From an uncultured Azospirillaceae bacterium (lineage in GTDB: Bacteria > Pseudomonadota > Alphaproteobacteria > Rickettsiales > UBA3002), in assembly GCA_964352815.1 (NCBI GenBank), contig CAYGTO010000003.1:69015-133014 (forward strand): a stretch of 64,000 nucleotides of DNA, written 5' to 3'. Positions 21,934-55,080 of the stretch are shown piece by piece; within the stretch, counting starts at the first letter, position 1, and each line of letters begins with the position of its first letter. Made by a program: the position numbers and the translations under genes. The notes under the pieces are model-generated. The model was not told the origin of the DNA. It saw nothing but the letters and a program-made list of their open reading frames with translations, and ran no database searches.

Positions 21934-22029
21934 TCGAATTTACAACAAAAGAGGTGCGCAAAGGCCCCTAACCTCTTGTCTCATTTGTGGTTATGTTATA
22001 AGCCGTTGAATAACATTATCATAGAAAGA

Positions 22030-23907
22030 ATGACGAACTATCGCCACCTATTTTTTTCCACCATCCTCGCCTCTAGCGTTAGCGCTTTTGGGTTTGCGGG
22101 CTATGTGGCCGCGCAAGACGCGGAGCAGCCGCCTGCTTCGCTCGGGATTGATGCCCCCTATCAGGGCAAGCAGGACGCGGTGTCGTTTATTCCGCCGCTC
22201 GATGCCATTGCGATTGAAGAGACTAGCGCGCTTACGTATGAGTCTGAAGGCTTAGAAACACCGCAAAGCCAGGGGTTTTCTAACGATATTTGGCGCGAGA
22301 GTAGCCAAGAATCCTTAGTTAACCTGCTACAAAAGCTACCGCAAGGCATTGATAACGCATCGATGCGCCAGCTATTAACCTTGCTGCTTTCATTCCGCAC
22401 GCAAGGGCCGGAAAAAGAGAGTGATGACGAGAATTGGCTGACGCTGCGTGCACGCACATTGGCCCATATAGGGGAAATCGATAAGGCCCTCACACTCCTC
22501 ACGCTTCTGCCTAAGGAACAGCGCAGTGCCGAGCATCGTATCATGCAGATGGGCTATGCGCTGCAAACGGGTAATTCTAAAAAAGCATGCGATCAGGTGC
22601 GCGCGACACCTGACATCGCTGCGTCGGTGGGAGGCAGTGCTGCATTTTTGCCAAGCGTGTGCCATGCGATTGATGGAAACCAAGCCAAAGCGTCGCTGCA
22701 AACAAGTTTGCTTAGCGAGTCCAACCTTCTGGCGCCATGGATGGAACGCTGGCTGAAGGCCTATCATATTACCAGTCCGAAAGCGGCGAACAACGCCGCC
22801 GCGTTTTATTTCTCTGACGATAACGATGATGCGCTGAGCGAATCAAGCGATGCATATGACGCGATTCAGTATGGATTGCTGCGTTACCTGCTGCCTGGCG
22901 TATGGCCGAAAGAATACCGTTCACTCGTCGGCATTGAAGAATTGCCGCTAGCTCTGCAGCGCGCCGTGCTAGAAGACCCGAAACTGTCCGACCTGCTTGA
23001 TAAAAAAGACGCGCTGCGTCTTGCAGAATCTCTCTTCACAGTCGGTGCTTTGCCGAAAGAGCTGCTGTTTGAACGATACGCCACCTACCATGGCGGCGGC
23101 TTCACCCAGCATGCTGATCTCTCCTCAACCACCGCATTCCGCGGGGCAGATGGCCATGCGGCGCTCTATGGTCAGCTCATCGCCACGACGCAGCTTACCA
23201 AACAATCCGCTATCTTGCGCAAATTCTTCGAAGTCGCACATAAAGAAACGCGCATTCCGTTGATGCAATCTTTGTTCGGTGATGTGATCGAGCAAATGTC
23301 TGAGAAAATAAAGCCTGACACGCCCTATCTTGAGATTGCACCGATCGCGTTGATTCATGCGCTGTCGAACACAGACCCGGTGCAGGCAACGCGCTGGGCG
23401 AATCATTTGGAGCAGCATCGTTCCTCGCATGCATTGCTTCCGCTAGGGAAAGCGATGATCGGCTTCCTCAAGGCACGTATTTCGGGTGATGCCGAGACGA
23501 GCCGTTACGAAGCAATCACGCTAACTCTGCCAGCGCCCAACATTATTGCGGATCGCGATGAGCGTCAGTTGATGGCACAGCTTTATACGCTGCTCAGCGC
23601 GTCTGGCCTTGCGGTCGACGATGCGCTGATGGCAGGTGAAACGGTCGCATCCGATGCCGGCACCATGCTGCATCCACTTATGCTGCCCTTGCGCCGCGCC
23701 ATCGAAGAACAACGCAAAGGCCCGGTGATCCTCTATATGATAAGCATTCTACAAGAGACACCTCTCGCATCCATGCACCCGAAAATGGCTGCAGATCTCG
23801 TGAATGCGATGCATGCCATTGGGTATGATAGCTGGGCAGATAGTATGCTGATGCAAGCGTTGGCGGCGGATTTAATGGCGCTGTATGCGGCACCCTCTGA
23901 TGGGTAA
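22030..23907 (+). CDS. hypothetical secreted protein
   Basis: The track ORF starts at a TTG (21976). ATG 22030 gives MTNYRHLFFSTILASSVSAFGFAGYVAAQD, a plausible Sec signal. No catalytic motif seen. Confidence 0.55.
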   Translation: MTNYRHLFFSTILASSVSAFGFAGYVAAQDAEQPPASLGIDAPYQGKQDAVSFIPPLDAIAIEETSALTYESEGLETPQSQGFSNDIWRESSQESLVNLLQKLPQGIDNASMRQLLTLLLSFRTQGPEKESDDENWLTLRARTLAHIGEIDKALTLLTLLPKEQRSAEHRIMQMGYALQTGNSKKACDQVRATPDIAASVGGSAAFLPSVCHAIDGNQAKASLQTSLLSESNLLAPWMERWLKAYHITSPKAANNAAAFYFSDDNDDALSESSDAYDAIQYGLLRYLLPGVWPKEYRSLVGIEELPLALQRAVLEDPKLSDLLDKKDALRLAESLFTVGALPKELLFERYATYHGGGFTQHADLSSTTAFRGADGHAALYGQLIATTQLTKQSAILRKFFEVAHKETRIPLMQSLFGDVIEQMSEKIKPDTPYLEIAPIALIHALSNTDPVQATRWANHLEQHRSSHALLPLGKAMIGFLKARISGDAETSRYEAITLTLPAPNIIADRDERQLMAQLYTLLSASGLAVDDALMAGETVASDAGTMLHPLMLPLRRAIEEQRKGPVILYMISILQETPLASMHPKMAADLVNAMHAIGYDSWADSMLMQALAADLMALYAAPSDG

Positions 23908-31365: not shown

Positions 31366-31614
31366 CTATTCGAACTGTTTGCCACACGATGATTCCGCGA
31401 CCAGCCCTGCTTTGACATAATTTTCTTTTATCTTCTTATACGCGACGTAATCGGCGACTGCAACCACGGGGATGATAGATAGGAACAGGAAATCCTGTAA
31501 GACGGTTACAATGATGATCGTTAACAGTATTAAAGTGAAGGTCATGCCGTATTTCATCATGACGAGAATTCGCGCCGCCTGTTGTTTTTGCTGCTCGGTG
31601 GGAGCGCTGGACAT
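31366..31614 (-). CDS. hypothetical small membrane protein
   Basis: 82 aa with two hydrophobic helices. Starts 2 nt after the rpoD stop. Confidence 0.45.
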   Translation of the reverse strand: MSSAPTEQQKQQAARILVMMKYGMTFTLILLTIIIVTVLQDFLFLSIIPVVAVADYVAYKKIKENYVKAGLVAESSCGKQFE

Positions 31615-31616
31615 GC

Positions 31617-34226
31617 TTAATAATTATCCAAGAAGCTGCGCATTTTTCGGCTGCGGCTTGGGTGCTTCAGCTTGCGCAGGGCTTTGGCTTCAATCTGACG
31701 AATCCGCTCACGGGTCACGCTAAACTGCTGCCCCACTTCCTCGAGCGTATGGTCGGTGTTCATGCCAATGCCAAAGCGCATCCGCAGCACCCGCTCTTCG
31801 CGCGGTGTCAGCGTCGCCAGCACGCGGGTGGTGACTTCGCGCAGATTATTATGCACCGCGGAATCGAGCGGCAGAATCGCATTTTTATCTTCGATGAAAT
31901 CGCCAAGATGCGAATCTTCCTCATCACCCACCGGGGTTTCGAGCGAGACCGGCTCTTTCGCGATTTTCATCACCTTGCGCACTTTGTCGACAGGCATCAC
32001 CAAACGTTTCGCCAATTCTTCTGGCGTTGGCTCACGGCCAATTTCATGCAACATCTGACGACCGGTGCGGACAATTTTATTGATTGTTTCGATCATATGG
32101 ACCGGAATCCGGATCGTACGCGCTTGGTCCGCAATCGAACGGGTGATTGCCTGACGAATCCACCAGGTTGCATAGGTTGAGAATTTATAGCCGCGGCGAT
32201 ATTCGAACTTATCGACCGCCTTCATCAGGCCAATATTTCCTTCCTGAATCAGATCCAGGAATTGCAGCCCGCGATTGGTGTATTTCTTCGCGATCGAAAT
32301 CACGAGGCGCAGGTTTGCCTCAATCATCTCCTTCTTCGCACGTGATGCCTCGCGTTCACCCTTACTCACCGCGCCAACGACACGCTTGAATTCTTGCACA
32401 TCAAGGCCCTGTTGCTTCGCGACCGCTTCAATCTTCTCACGAATCTCAATGATTTCATCTTTGTGATTGGCAACAAACTCTTTCCAGCCCTTCTCCTTCA
32501 GCTTAGAAACATCTTTGATCCAGTCCGGTGCGACTTCATTGGTTGCGTAATGCTCAAGGAAATTTTTGCGACTGACTTTGGATTTTTCGGCAAGGCGGAG
32601 GAGCCGCGTCTCAAGTGCGATGAGCTTTTTATTTTCACCGTAGAGACGATCCATCAGCTCGTCGACACGCAGCGCGCTCAAACGCACCGTCAGCATGAGC
32701 TCAGTAAGATCCTTATGGAGAGCATCATACTTCTTTTGATCTACTGTGGCGAAACTACCTTCGCCAAATCCAGCACCCAGACGCTTATCCTGCAAGCGCT
32801 TCATCTTTTTCGCGATTTTAGCAAAATCGTCTAACGTTTCAAGGAACTGAGGCATGAGCGCATTTTCCATCGCCACCAGTGACATTGCCGTGTCATCATA
32901 ATCATCCTCGTCCTCTTCCTCTTCCTCGCCTTCGCCCTCTTCATCTTCCTTATCTTCATCCTCATCGGTTTCATCATCCGAATCTTTTTTGGATTTTTTC
33001 TTGGGCTTATCTTCTTCCTTTGTCTCTTTTTCTTTGGCCTCTTTTTCTTTTGTCTCCTCTTCCTCTAGCGTATCAAATGCCTCTTCAAGCTCGTCTTCTG
33101 TAGGCTCATCTTCATCTTCCGAGAAATCATTCTCAGCATTATAGGTGCCTTCCAGATCGATGATATCACGCAGTAAAATCTCACCCGTCGATAGCCCATC
33201 ACGCCAGGCCAGCATGGTGTCCATCACCACGGGACTTTCGCACAAAGACCGAATAATCATCTCGCGACCTTCTTCAATGCGCTTCGCAATCGCAATCTCA
33301 CCTTCGCGTGAGAGCAGCTCGACATTGCCCATCTCGCGCAAATACATGCGAACAGGGTCATCGGAGCGACCGTAATAATCATCACTCTTTGCTTCCGATT
33401 CCTCTTCTTCCGCTTCTTCGCCCTCAATCGTTACTTCTTTTTCTTCACTATCACCTTCCACAAGATCCGTCACCTTGATGCCATTTTTTTCAAGCGCATC
33501 AATCGTATTATCAATCACTTCGGGGGAGAATTCTTCCGCAGGAAGTACCGCATTCAAATCATCATACGTCACGAAGCCTTGCTTCTTACCCAGCGTCGCA
33601 AGTTTTTTCATGACATCAGGAGAGACACTATTCTTCAGATTTTCTGCCGGAACGGCTTTCTTCGCCGTCTTTTTCGTTTTGCTTTCTTTCGCAGTCGCCT
33701 TCTTCGGCGTTTCTGCTTTCGCTGGCTTTTTGGCTGCTGACTTTGGAGCTGCCTTCGTGGCTTTCGCTTTTACAGGCGCTTTAGATGCTGCCTTTTTCGA
33801 GGTCGATTTCGTTGATTTAACAGTTGCAGTCACAGACTTCTTAGCCTTTACAGGAGTGGTTTTTTTCGATGCGGTGGAAGCTGTCGTCTTCTTCGCGGTT
33901 GTTTTTGTTGTAGTAGTATTACGCGTGGCCGCCTTTTTAGGTGACGCTTTGGCCGCGACTTTTTTCGCAGGCGCTTTCTTAGCAGCGGCCTTTTTGGTTG
34001 GCGTCTTCTTCGCGGGAGATTTCTTCACCGCTGTTTTAGTAGTAACTTTTTTTACCGGTGTTTTTTTCGTAGCAGGCTTCTTGGCTGCTGGCTTTTTCAC
34101 TGTGACTTTCTTTGCTGGCGCTTTCTTAGCAGCAGACTTCTTCACCGCTGCTTTTTTGGCCGGCGCTTTTTTCGCTGCTGTTTTTTTTGCTGTTGATGCT
34201 TTTGCGGTTTTCTTCTTCGCTACCAT
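31617..34226 (-). CDS. rpoD: RNA polymerase primary sigma factor with Lys/Ala/Pro-rich N-terminal extension
   Basis: Regions 1.2-4.2 are canonical ([11 protein letters not shown], ...[55 protein letters not shown], ...[27 protein letters not shown]). aa 1-195 are AKKxP-type repeats in the same frame. Confidence 0.9.
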
Positions 34227-34423
34227 AGACGACCCCTGCCTTACATGAAGGCACTGTTTTATTCTGTCATTTGCCGAGAATAATAATGTATCTCAATTTC
34301 TTAACTGAAAAGAGATATAGAGATTTCTTGATAGACTTCAAGTATTAACTCTAGGCAAGGTGCTGTTTTATTCTGAAACCTTCAAGCAATAGCCCGCGGT
34401 TTTCCACAAGTCGGAGGCACAGA

Positions 34424-36283
34424 TTAGGATGCCTGCGCCGATGCGAGGGCTAGCTCATTGCTTTCTATCTCGTCTCGTTCTGCATCAAGCAATTGTTTTT
34501 GCTTTTTAATATTTTCAAAATAGCGTAACGTCTCTTCGGTCATCGCCTCTTCCATGGCGCGCTCTGCAACTTTGATTTCTGTTTCCATCATCGCGCGTAT
34601 GTAGCTATTCGTGGACTTTCGCCAAATTAATTGTGGCGCAAGCTTTAAGTGTGTGCGGTTGAGTATTTGATTCTCCTGAATAAATCGTTTTATCTCAGGG
34701 CATTCCTCAGCCATGGCCTGGCTGGCAAGTGAATCGCTTGGGCGACTGAGCAGAGAAAGAATATAGCTCTGAATCGTATGATTCTCGGGGCTTTCAAACG
34801 ATAGCATACTCAACGTATCTTCCGCATCGGCCTCGCTTAATAAAGACGGCTCAAGACACAGGCACAACAAAATCTGCCGTGCGGCTGATTGTGTGGCGTG
34901 ACTCTGCCCTTTCGTGTCAATCAATGCGCCGAGATTGGTTGGCCGCGCAGGGATAGCGATTTTTCCCTTGCCGGGCTTACGGAAAGCTGTGTTCGGCTTT
35001 GATTGATAACTCTGGCGGCGCACTTCATAGAGCTTTTGTTTAAAGAACTGCTCCAAATGTTTGCGCATGGTTGGATGCTGTACCTTCATCGCATAGCCCA
35101 TGAGCTGTTCTTCCGCCGCCGCCGAAGTCGATGGATCTTTAGACAGCGCATCACGGTGCATCGCCCATAGCGCTTCCGACACATCCCGCGCCCCGTCGAG
35201 TAAGGACGTCATGGCTGCCTTGCCATTCGCTCGGTTCACTAATGTGTCTGGGTCCTCCCCTTCAGGCATCGTCATCAGTGCCAAGCTTTTGCCAGGTGAC
35301 AGCAGCGGCAGAGCCGTATCCATCGCCCGCTGCATCGCTCGCTGGCCGGCATTATCACCGTCAAGACAGAGAACTGGGCGATCGGTCATACGCCACAAAA
35401 GCTGGAGCTGATCAGCGGTCAGGGCTGTGCCGAGCGGGGCGACCGCCGGAATCTCCGCGCGGTGTAGCGCAATCACATCCGTGTAACCTTCAGCGATGAC
35501 TATCTGAGCGCCATCACGCGCCGGGCGCATCACCAGATCCTGGTTATAGAGCATGTGCCCCTTATGGAAGAGCTCAGTCTCTGGGCTGTTGACGTATTTC
35601 GGCGCTTTACCCGAAGGATCCTTGCTAAGCAGCCGGCCGCCAAAGGCCACCACTTGCGAGCGCCGGCTACGAATCGGGAACATGATCCGGTCACGGAAAC
35701 GCGCATAAGGGGTTTTCCCATCAAGCGCAATGAACAGACCAGCATCAACCAGTTGTTTTGCTTGAATATTTCTTCCTTTCAGATCATTCAATAGCGCTTG
35801 GCGGTCGGGGGGGGCATAACCGATCCGAAATGTCTCAATCATCGTATCACTAATCCCGCGCGCATGGAGGTAGCGTCGCGCCTCTGCCCCTTCATTGGCG
35901 AAGAGCTGTGACTGAAACCACTGGCATGCAAGCTCACTAACCTGCTGAAGATTAAAGCGTTCTTCTTCTCTCTTTTGCACTTCGGGCGACAGTTTCGGCA
36001 GCGGGACACCCGCTTCATCGGCTAAACGTTCAATCGCTTCCTTATAACTAACCCCCTCATAATCCTTAATAAAACCAATAGCATCACCATGCGCCCCGCA
36101 GCCAAAGCAGTGGTAGAACCCCTTCTCGTCACTAATGGTGAAAGAAGGCGTTTTTTCTTTGTGGAAGGGGCATAGCGCCATCATTTCCCGGCCAGCCTTA
36201 CGTACAGGGATGCGGCGACCAATGACTTCCGAGACTAGAAGCCGGTTTTTGAGCTGTTCAACAAAATCAGAAGGATATCGCAT
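34424..36283 (-). CDS. dnaG: DNA primase
   Basis: Zinc finger CPFHKEKTPSFTISDEKGFYHCFGCGAHGD. TOPRIM EGYTDVIAL...DGDNAGQRA. Confidence 0.9.
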   Translation of the reverse strand: MRYPSDFVEQLKNRLLVSEVIGRRIPVRKAGREMMALCPFHKEKTPSFTISDEKGFYHCFGCGAHGDAIGFIKDYEGVSYKEAIERLADEAGVPLPKLSPEVQKREEERFNLQQVSELACQWFQSQLFANEGAEARRYLHARGISDTMIETFRIGYAPPDRQALLNDLKGRNIQAKQLVDAGLFIALDGKTPYARFRDRIMFPIRSRRSQVVAFGGRLLSKDPSGKAPKYVNSPETELFHKGHMLYNQDLVMRPARDGAQIVIAEGYTDVIALHRAEIPAVAPLGTALTADQLQLLWRMTDRPVLCLDGDNAGQRAMQRAMDTALPLLSPGKSLALMTMPEGEDPDTLVNRANGKAAMTSLLDGARDVSEALWAMHRDALSKDPSTSAAAEEQLMGYAMKVQHPTMRKHLEQFFKQKLYEVRRQSYQSKPNTAFRKPGKGKIAIPARPTNLGALIDTKGQSHATQSAARQILLCLCLEPSLLSEADAEDTLSMLSFESPENHTIQSYILSLLSRPSDSLASQAMAEECPEIKRFIQENQILNRTHLKLAPQLIWRKSTNSYIRAMMETEIKVAERAMEEAMTEETLRYFENIKKQKQLLDAERDEIESNELALASAQAS

Positions 36284-54903: not shown

Positions 54904-54909
54904 TAAGAG

Positions 54910-55066
54910 AAGTACTGCGCGGTGCGTGAGGATCGAACGCTCCGGGACCGATGTAACCTTTAAGGGAGCTGTCCCTTGCTTCGGCTGTGGCCTTAGTAAT
55001 ATGGCACCCACCTGACCACACGGGTCACGGGAGGTTTTATGCATCCCACGGCCAGCGCGGTACTTT
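54910..55066 (+). ncRNA. ssrS: 6S RNA (putative)
   Basis: It lies between zapA and the 5-formyl-THF cyclo-ligase gene, the conserved ssrS slot. An 11-bp closing stem pairs AAGUACUGCGC (54910-54920) with GCGCGGUACUU (55055-55065), with one G-U pair. Length is ~157 nt. An internal arm CUCCGGGACC pairs imperfectly with GGGUCACGGGAG. Confidence 0.6.
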
Positions 55067-55080
55067 ACCTAAGGTCCACT

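Follow-up and report, generated by a model that had tools for sequence, protein, structure and literature searches.

Does the housekeeping sigma factor of an uncultured alphaproteobacterium carry a long, histone-like N-terminal tail, and if so, what might such a tail do there? The question is raised by rpoD, which lies at 31617..34226 on the minus strand of a 64-kb stretch of contig CAYGTO010000003.1 (positions 69,015 to 133,014; GenBank assembly GCA_964352815.1) from an uncultured Azospirillaceae bacterium placed by GTDB in the Rickettsiales (UBA3002). We refer to this stretch as the window, and all window-wide statements concern these 64 kb only; features are on the minus strand unless noted otherwise. 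A sequence-only reading of the window had proposed that the rpoD frame continues upstream of Met206, the methionine that would give a protein of normal size, and that the added residues form a Lys/Ala/Pro/Thr-rich extension resembling histone H1. Our analysis indicates that translation very probably begins at the upstream ATG (position 34226), and it suggests that the basic tail is a clade-wide trait rather than a one-off oddity. We consider non-specific, sequence-independent electrostatic binding of DNA to be the most likely role of the tail, with a probability of roughly 0.6.

The full open reading frame (ORF) encodes 869 amino acids (aa), with a calculated mass of 97.4 kDa and an isoelectric point (pI) of 9.2. 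Based on Pfam analysis, all six expected families (PF03979, PF00140, PF04546, PF04542, PF04539, and PF04545) exceed their cut-offs; the matches span region 1.1 (aa 206-278), region 1.2 (aa 290-322), the non-conserved region (aa 417-602), region 2 (aa 634-704), region 3 (aa 713-788), and region 4 (aa 802-855). For the NCBIfam RpoD equivalog NF004208 (PRK05658), the score of 843.6 bits is well above the cut-off of 555. With its regions complete, the equivalog threshold passed, and the gene in the dnaG-rpoD position, this protein is RpoD, a group-1 housekeeping sigma-70 factor. Region 1.1 is canonical (33393..33611; PF03979, E = 2.4e-16) and is modeled by AlphaFold2 with a predicted local distance difference test score (pLDDT) of 77-87 over aa 201-250. 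Further in, the non-conserved region contains an acidic, mostly disordered insert (aa 365-446; 32889..33134) with charges of -16 and -17 per 40 aa and pLDDT <50 for aa 401-446; the strongly acidic spacer mentioned in the sequence-only reading is present within these residues.

The residues that precede region 1.1 (aa 1-205; 33612..34226) are of a different kind. They consist of 33% Lys, 24% Ala, 23% Thr plus Ser, and 8% Pro, with only 2% Asp plus Glu, and they carry a net charge of +64, a composition that bears out the description of an H1-like stretch. Without them, the 664-residue core has a net charge of -43, a calculated pI of 4.86, and a mass of 76.4 kDa; adding the tail shifts the pI to 9.2 and the mass to 97.4 kDa. 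The protein is thus a block polyampholyte, with a tail of +64 and a core of -43. In the AlphaFold2 model, which was built on a 45-sequence alignment, aa 1-198 have pLDDT values of 31-42 and lack secondary structure, whereas the first helix of region 1.1 begins at aa 203, ahead of Met206.

The most regular part of the tail is an array of pentapeptide (x-x-x-K-K) repeats (aa 11-90; 33957..34196), in which Lys-Lys dipeptides recur at exact 5-residue intervals over aa 14-59 and aa 68-88. The consensus is (A/P/T/S)(A/P/T)(A/V/T)KK, and mycobacterial Ku and HupB carry repeats of this type (PAKKA). The array is followed by a Thr/Ser-rich spacer that is still basic (aa ~100-150; 33777..33929) and then by a second Lys/Ala block (aa ~150-195). 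Across the tail, the (A/P)KK(A/P) motif occurs nine times, and SPKK and TPKK occur once each. At the DNA level, the tail contains degenerate direct repeats (~60-70% identical) in a 15-nt register that agrees with the 5-residue Lys-Lys spacing; the repeats are old and degenerate. Tandem Repeats Finder identified only one weak repeat in the tail (45 nt, 2.4 copies), which rules out a recent tandem duplication. The tail fits a loose definition of a lysine-repeat DNA-binding tail, namely, multiple regularly spaced Lys repeats on a protein that acts on DNA.

Whether this region is translated depends on the start codon. From ATG 34226 to Met206, the frame is open for 615 nt with 0 stops, as had been reported from the sequence; the other two sense frames across the tail contain 9 and 10 stops. 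When the tail DNA was shuffled by mononucleotide, the frame remained open in only 0.02% of cases. Codon periodicity in the tail is extreme (G at 1% of second positions, A+G at 85% of first positions), and its synonymous codon mix is similar to that of the core. A Shine-Dalgarno (SD)-like AGGGG lies 6 nt before ATG 34226 (34233..34237). We scored SD sequences as duplex energies with a generic anti-SD sequence and compared them with random positions and with ORF starts in the window. The energy at ATG 34226 (-8.8 kcal/mol) is the second best of the 30 ORF starts in the window, the other 29 having a median of -3.3 kcal/mol, and an energy this good or better occurs at 1.25% of random positions. 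By the same measure, Met206 scores +0.6 kcal/mol and four internal GTG codons score -0.1 to -3.2 kcal/mol, consistent with the sequence-only reading, which had seen nothing SD-like at Met206. Two homologous loci, L081 and L083, have SD-like GAGG and GAGGAG, respectively, at matching spacing before their own far-upstream ATG.

If translation instead began at Met206 or at an internal GTG, the 615 nt would be a 5' leader that is open by chance, and the product would be an ordinary RpoD of ~76 kDa. The Pfam match to region 1.1 indeed starts close to Met206, the resulting length would be conventional, and start calls do differ among RpoDs with Lys/Ala-rich N-termini, as in Comamonas, where a single cluster contains RpoD annotations of 821 aa and of 755 aa. 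The absence of an SD sequence at Met206, in contrast to ATG 34226, stands against this alternative, as does the fact that the tail frame, with its strong periodicity, is the sole open one. The position of Met206 (33609..33611) also argues against a start codon. The predicted helix is already under way there, the residues just before it are conserved in L081 (NLKDSVSPEI in that locus), and the RpoDs of other Alphaproteobacteria begin 22-48 aa ahead of its equivalent. The suggestion that Met206 marks the usual beginning of region 1.1 therefore does not hold.

Comparison with L081, the closest homologue, provides further evidence on the frame. In the tail, 34 aligned codons are identical, 43 differ only synonymously, and 67 differ non-synonymously, whereas the corresponding counts in the core are 246, 281, and 124. 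Silent sites are saturated between the two loci, since 281 of the 527 core codons that specify the same residue differ; the frame and the composition of the tail therefore outlast silent divergence. Both are also kept in >100 relatives with tails of variable length. Given this evidence, we regard a Met206 or GTG start as highly improbable, and ATG 34226 as very probably the position from which rpoD is translated.

Two other features overlap this region. A 257-aa ORF rich in Phe, Ala, and Val on the plus strand (33475..34248) is an antisense shadow of the tail; one antisense frame is free of stops by composition, and the ORF results from the bias of the tail toward AAR/GCN codons and is not a gene. 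A 6-bp hairpin, TGCCTT-CATGT-AAGGCA on the minus strand (34237-34253), abuts the rpoD SD sequence and carries an ATG-TAA start-stop in its loop. A regulatory role for this hairpin was ruled out, as the 5' leader folds no better than shuffled sequences (z = -0.55).

To what extent do relatives share the tail? A search with the full-length protein returned 120 RpoDs, from metagenome-assembled genomes (MAGs) labeled as uncultured "Rickettsiales" or "Alphaproteobacteria bacterium," all of which have a Lys-rich extension of 35-346 aa before region 1.1. Because this search was word-seeded and could favour tailed sequences, we repeated it with the tail-free core. Among the 120 closest RpoDs identified with the core, the extension is at least 100 aa long in 93, 60-99 aa in 10, 30-59 aa in 15, and <30 aa in 2; in other words, 103 of 120 have a basic extension of at least 60 aa, and the short extensions are likewise basic. 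Within the clade, tails range in length from 25 to 346 aa and hardly any positions are conserved, yet the density of positive charge is constant (Lys 21-41%, Asp plus Glu mostly <10%).

As a background sample, we used 80 rpoD loci of GTDB species representatives, taken from among the matches listed in the core scan and not the closest relatives; they represent cultured and MAG Alphaproteobacteria of the Rhizobiales, Rhodobacterales, Sphingomonadales, Caulobacterales, Rhodospirillales, and other groups. A start could be called in 78 of the 80. In 69 of these, the leader before the Met206 equivalent is 22-48 aa long and acidic in nearly all cases (Lys ≤17%, Asp plus Glu 13-36%; for example, MATKVKENEE...DGPLLDLSDAA), and in the other nine it is 8-106 aa long. 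None of the 78 assessable loci has a Lys-rich tail. A neighbour-joining tree built from 307 core sequences places the window RpoD in a clade of 121 leaves, 90% of which are tailed; none of the 79 loci that represent other alphaproteobacterial groups belongs to this clade.

Gene order supports orthology within the clade. The order ygjP-dnaG-rpoD-NDUFA12-mlaD-DUF2155 matches completely between the window and L083, and it matches L082 through NDUFA12, where the L082 contig ends; the tailed rpoD genes are therefore orthologous. The dnaG (primase) gene itself (34424..36283) was identified from the ORF list and from synteny with L082 and L083, in which Pfam detects DnaG domains, and it lies immediately upstream of rpoD, separated from it by a 197-nt spacer. 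The G+C content is 52% in the window and 44-45% in two orthologous loci, so the feature is not restricted to GC-rich genomes, in contrast to a suggestion that lysine repeats are confined to such genomes (PMC5714199).

Basic extensions also occur well beyond this clade. An exhaustive HMMER search, with representatives clustered at 50% identity, yielded 112 RpoDs with an aligned start of region 1.1, of which 17 (15%) have a basic extension of at least 60 aa. Some of these 17 are rich in Lys, Ile, and Asn, as expected of AT-rich genomes, and one is the RefSeq RpoD of the cultured bacterium Comamonas odontotermitis (WP_224149603.1, 821 aa). The same 90%-identity cluster (P0225) contains an alternative 755-aa start call, WP_429015266.1. 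The recurrence of basic tails in ~15% of RpoD cluster representatives, together with their presence across the clade, qualifies the sequence-only reading of the tail: translation from ATG 34226 and the resemblance of the composition and Lys-Lys pentads to H1/PAKKA tails stood, whereas the rarity of the feature had been overstated.

Two observations on RpoD N-termini arose from the same sets of sequences. In a sub-clade of tailed RpoDs, the start is called from an in-frame upstream Met, giving a Trp-rich peptide, MWWLWLDxKDKKGxxxDM(S/A)K, 15-18 aa before the usual MSKK/MAKK start. This peptide is conserved in homologues P0004, P0013, P0014, P0022, P0032, P0035, P0054, P0290, P0292, P0298, P0308, and others, with variants MWWTLWQKNGKGEAM, MVFPFFLSGL, and MFFPFLFSGL. 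The peptide may represent the true N-terminus of these proteins, a leader peptide, or an in-frame reading of a conserved 5' untranslated element. In addition, three cluster representatives are giant RpoD-like proteins with a complete C-terminal sigma core (P0137, 1571 aa; P0138, 1757 aa; P0166, 1413 aa). The N-terminal region ahead of the matched core measures ~970 aa in P0166 and ~1300-1500 aa in P0137 and P0138.

With regard to origin, tailed and tail-less RpoDs share a beginning of the form MATK..., and short intermediates were found, which argues for expansion in place rather than gene fusion. The tail would most likely have arisen from the short MATK... leader seen in other alphaproteobacterial RpoDs. 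Fusion with an upstream H1-like gene and a sequencing frameshift were both ruled out by the shared MATK... and by >100 orthologues with the same continuous frame; the sequence-only reading had named an interrupted frame in relatives as an outcome that would count against it, and the extension passed this check.

Such an expansion might have been nearly neutral, with AAR/GCN repeats lengthening through replication slippage at a tolerant N-terminus and serving no specific function. The wide range of tail lengths and the near absence of positional conservation would be expected in that case, the 15-nt register is compatible with slippage, and the tail evolves faster than the core (47% versus 19% of aligned codons are non-synonymous). 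However, the same composition persists across a deep clade in which silent sites are saturated, the density of positive charge is held constant, and basic extensions arose independently in the 17 cluster representatives described above. A comparable Lys-rich tract was found in no other ORF of the window; the tract is confined to RpoD there, and proteome-wide drift is therefore not indicated. Moreover, the analogous extension of Mycobacterium tuberculosis sigma-A appears essential, as a truncation of 179 residues fails to complement in vivo (PMC11888270). We thus find a functionless expansion hard to credit; instead, selection would maintain the composition of the tail and not its exact sequence.

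Several known proteins offer comparisons for such a tail. Lysine repeats are enriched among the DNA-binding proteins of Streptomyces, one of which is the principal sigma factor HrdB, and the RpoD of Bordetella pertussis is among the few cases reported outside Actinobacteria (PMC5714199). A literature search on lysine-rich RpoD and primary sigma factors identified no study of a lysine-rich extension in a proteobacterial RpoD, only this passing remark in PMC5714199. The Burkholderiales proteins, from B. pertussis and from C. odontotermitis (WP_224149603.1), resemble the window RpoD in being housekeeping sigma-70 factors with a long, low-complexity, Lys/Ala-rich extension N-terminal to a canonical region 1.1, although they come from the Betaproteobacteria, an independent lineage. 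In Comamonas, the extension is less basic (Lys 18%, net charge +14) and has an acidic block between its basic part and region 1.1; the window tail is purer, has a strict 5-residue Lys-Lys register, and directly abuts region 1.1. The lysine repeats of Streptomyces HrdB lie after an N-terminal domain. HrdB is likewise a principal sigma factor with lysine repeats that is listed among DNA-binding proteins, but it is actinobacterial and lacks sequence homology to the window tail (PMC5714199).

The M. tuberculosis sigma-A protein also has a disordered extension of ~160-225 aa N-terminal to region 1.2; however, that extension is described as non-homologous to region 1.1, which it replaces, and it works with an actinobacteria-specific beta-prime insert and the transcription factors RbpA and CarD (PMC11888270, PMC5511352). 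Because the window RpoD retains a canonical region 1.1 behind its tail, it is not equivalent to sigma-A. Removal of 205 extension residues from sigma-A decreased the steady-state Vmax ~100-fold, and a protein without the first 179 residues failed in vivo complementation (PMC11888270).

In composition, the closest parallels are the H1-like/PAKKA tails of Hc1/Hc2, AlgP, HupB/MDP1, M. smegmatis Ku, and the C-terminal domain of actinobacterial TopA, which are disordered, polycationic, and built from Lys/Ala/Pro-rich pentapeptide repeats. Those tails are C-terminal or stand-alone and occur on architectural or repair proteins, not on sigma factors, and the likeness of the window tail to them is compositional and convergent. 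Lysine repeats stabilise TopA-DNA complexes experimentally (PMC5714199) and PAKKA repeats modulate DNA binding by Ku (PMC3553676).

We propose that the product of ATG 34226 is a complete group-1 sigma factor in which a disordered polycation of 205 residues, composed of a PAKKA-type Lys-Lys pentapeptide array, a Thr/Ser-rich basic spacer, and a second Lys/Ala block, lies ahead of a folded, acidic region 1.1. By analogy with the proteins above, binding of DNA by this tail would lend nucleoid affinity to free sigma and to the holoenzyme; nucleoid tethering is a hypothesis on this analogy. In addition, because the tail is attached to region 1.1, which sits in the downstream DNA channel, it would be placed at the mouth of that channel and may aid the capture or holding of promoter DNA during open-complex formation.

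Several points weigh against this proposal. We infer the DNA binding from composition alone. The Pfam HC2 family (PF07382) matched only aa 2-71, with 21.3 bits against a gathering score of 40 (E = 3.1e-4); this match reflects composition rather than homology and places the tail outside the Hc2/H1-like family, although the tail may still work like a member. A sequence search of the PDB identified no solved-structure relative of the tail, only a spurious match to a histone H3 tail (E = 0.05). Tail lengths of 25 to 346 aa speak against a structurally precise role and are compatible with weak selection. The tail may be cleaved post-translationally, or a minor internal start may be used. Among 120 homologues, the charge of the tail is not correlated with that of the core (r = 0.08). 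Finally, polycationic tails also bind RNA and polyphosphate.

The last of these points leads to a different proposal: a translated tail that mainly binds RNA (nascent transcripts, 6S RNA, or rRNA) or polyphosphate, or that drives condensate formation, so that sigma would be localised or buffered instead of being tethered to the chromosome. The holoenzyme of sigma-70 is bound by 6S RNA, and the window contains a 6S RNA gene (54909-55067, plus strand; Rfam RF00013, 61.6 bits, full-length match). Binding of 6S RNA could be altered by a polycationic tail on sigma. The block polyampholyte character of the protein is compatible with condensate formation of this kind, the H1-like protein AlgP organises polyphosphate granules (PMC9239181), and the lysine-rich protein MDP1/HupB condenses RNA (PMC13639343). 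Nevertheless, specific evidence for a non-DNA ligand is absent from our analysis, the nearest PAKKA/lysine-repeat analogues (TopA, Ku, and HupB) act on DNA, and sigma already works on DNA, which makes DNA the most available polyanion. We therefore consider a non-DNA main ligand rather unlikely, although it is the strongest of the alternatives.

A tail that acts mainly within its own molecule is less likely still. In that case, its effect would be to neutralise or displace acidic parts of the protein (region 1.1 and the linkers), altering the autoinhibition of free sigma, core binding, or recycling, with little contact with DNA. The direct fusion of the tail to the acidic region 1.1 would suit such a role, as would the unusually acidic core of the window RpoD (-43 versus a clade mean of -27). 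In Escherichia coli, region 1.1 is a DNA mimic within the channel (PMC11888270, PMC5511352), and the N-terminal extension of M. tuberculosis sigma-A alters Vmax but not EC50 (half-maximal effective concentration) in sigma titrations, for which a role in recycling was proposed (PMC11888270). Against this, the lack of correlation between tail and core charges, here in 120 tailed homologues, does not indicate an intramolecular partner, and mean core charges are nearly equal in tailed (-27) and tail-less (-26) proteins; together, these results provide no support for a co-evolved partner within the molecule, despite the unusually acidic core in the window. AlphaFold2 also predicted no confident structure for the tail, although such models are uninformative on fuzzy contacts. 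Electrostatic binding of DNA thus remains our preferred role for the tail.

The remaining observations concern the surroundings of rpoD. The dnaG-rpoD spacer contains a 19-nt direct repeat on the plus strand, AAGGCACTGTTTTATTCTG (34248-34266) and AAGGTGCTGTTTTATTCTG (34357-34375), with copies 109 nt apart; it may mark duplicated promoter or operator elements. A scan of the spacer with the sigma-70 promoter consensus found no match. Downstream, an 82-aa hydrophobic ORF (31366-31614) begins 2 nt past the stop codon of rpoD; its positional counterpart in L082 is 91 aa long, and a comparison of the two by eye revealed no obvious similarity. Elsewhere in the window, a 643-aa ORF with a TTG start (21976-23907, plus strand) has no Pfam match at E ≤ 1e-5.

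The tail is a little-studied, recurring feature of a known kind that is functionally unexplored, and experimental data on primary-sigma extensions exist only for the unrelated mycobacterial one. Above all, our analysis provides evidence that basic N-terminal tails are widespread among housekeeping sigma factors and stable within clades. It also bears on annotation, as start-codon calls in such rpoD genes are inconsistent, and cultured carriers (Comamonas and Bordetella) make the question of the tail experimentally tractable. Region 1.1 is thought to keep free sigma away from DNA by acting as an acidic DNA mimic, and a 200-residue polycation attached to it should change the partitioning of sigma among the cytoplasm, the core enzyme, and the chromosome. 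A bolder possibility, which we consider improbable, is that the housekeeping sigma factor of this deep uncultured clade may double as a histone-like nucleoid protein, a +64/-43 block polyampholyte that coats DNA or forms condensates of RNA polymerase and nucleoid. If this is true, sigma availability, promoter search, and chromosome compaction would be physically coupled, and the ~15% of RpoD families with basic N-terminal extensions would represent the repeated, convergent invention of a chromatin-tethered sigma factor.

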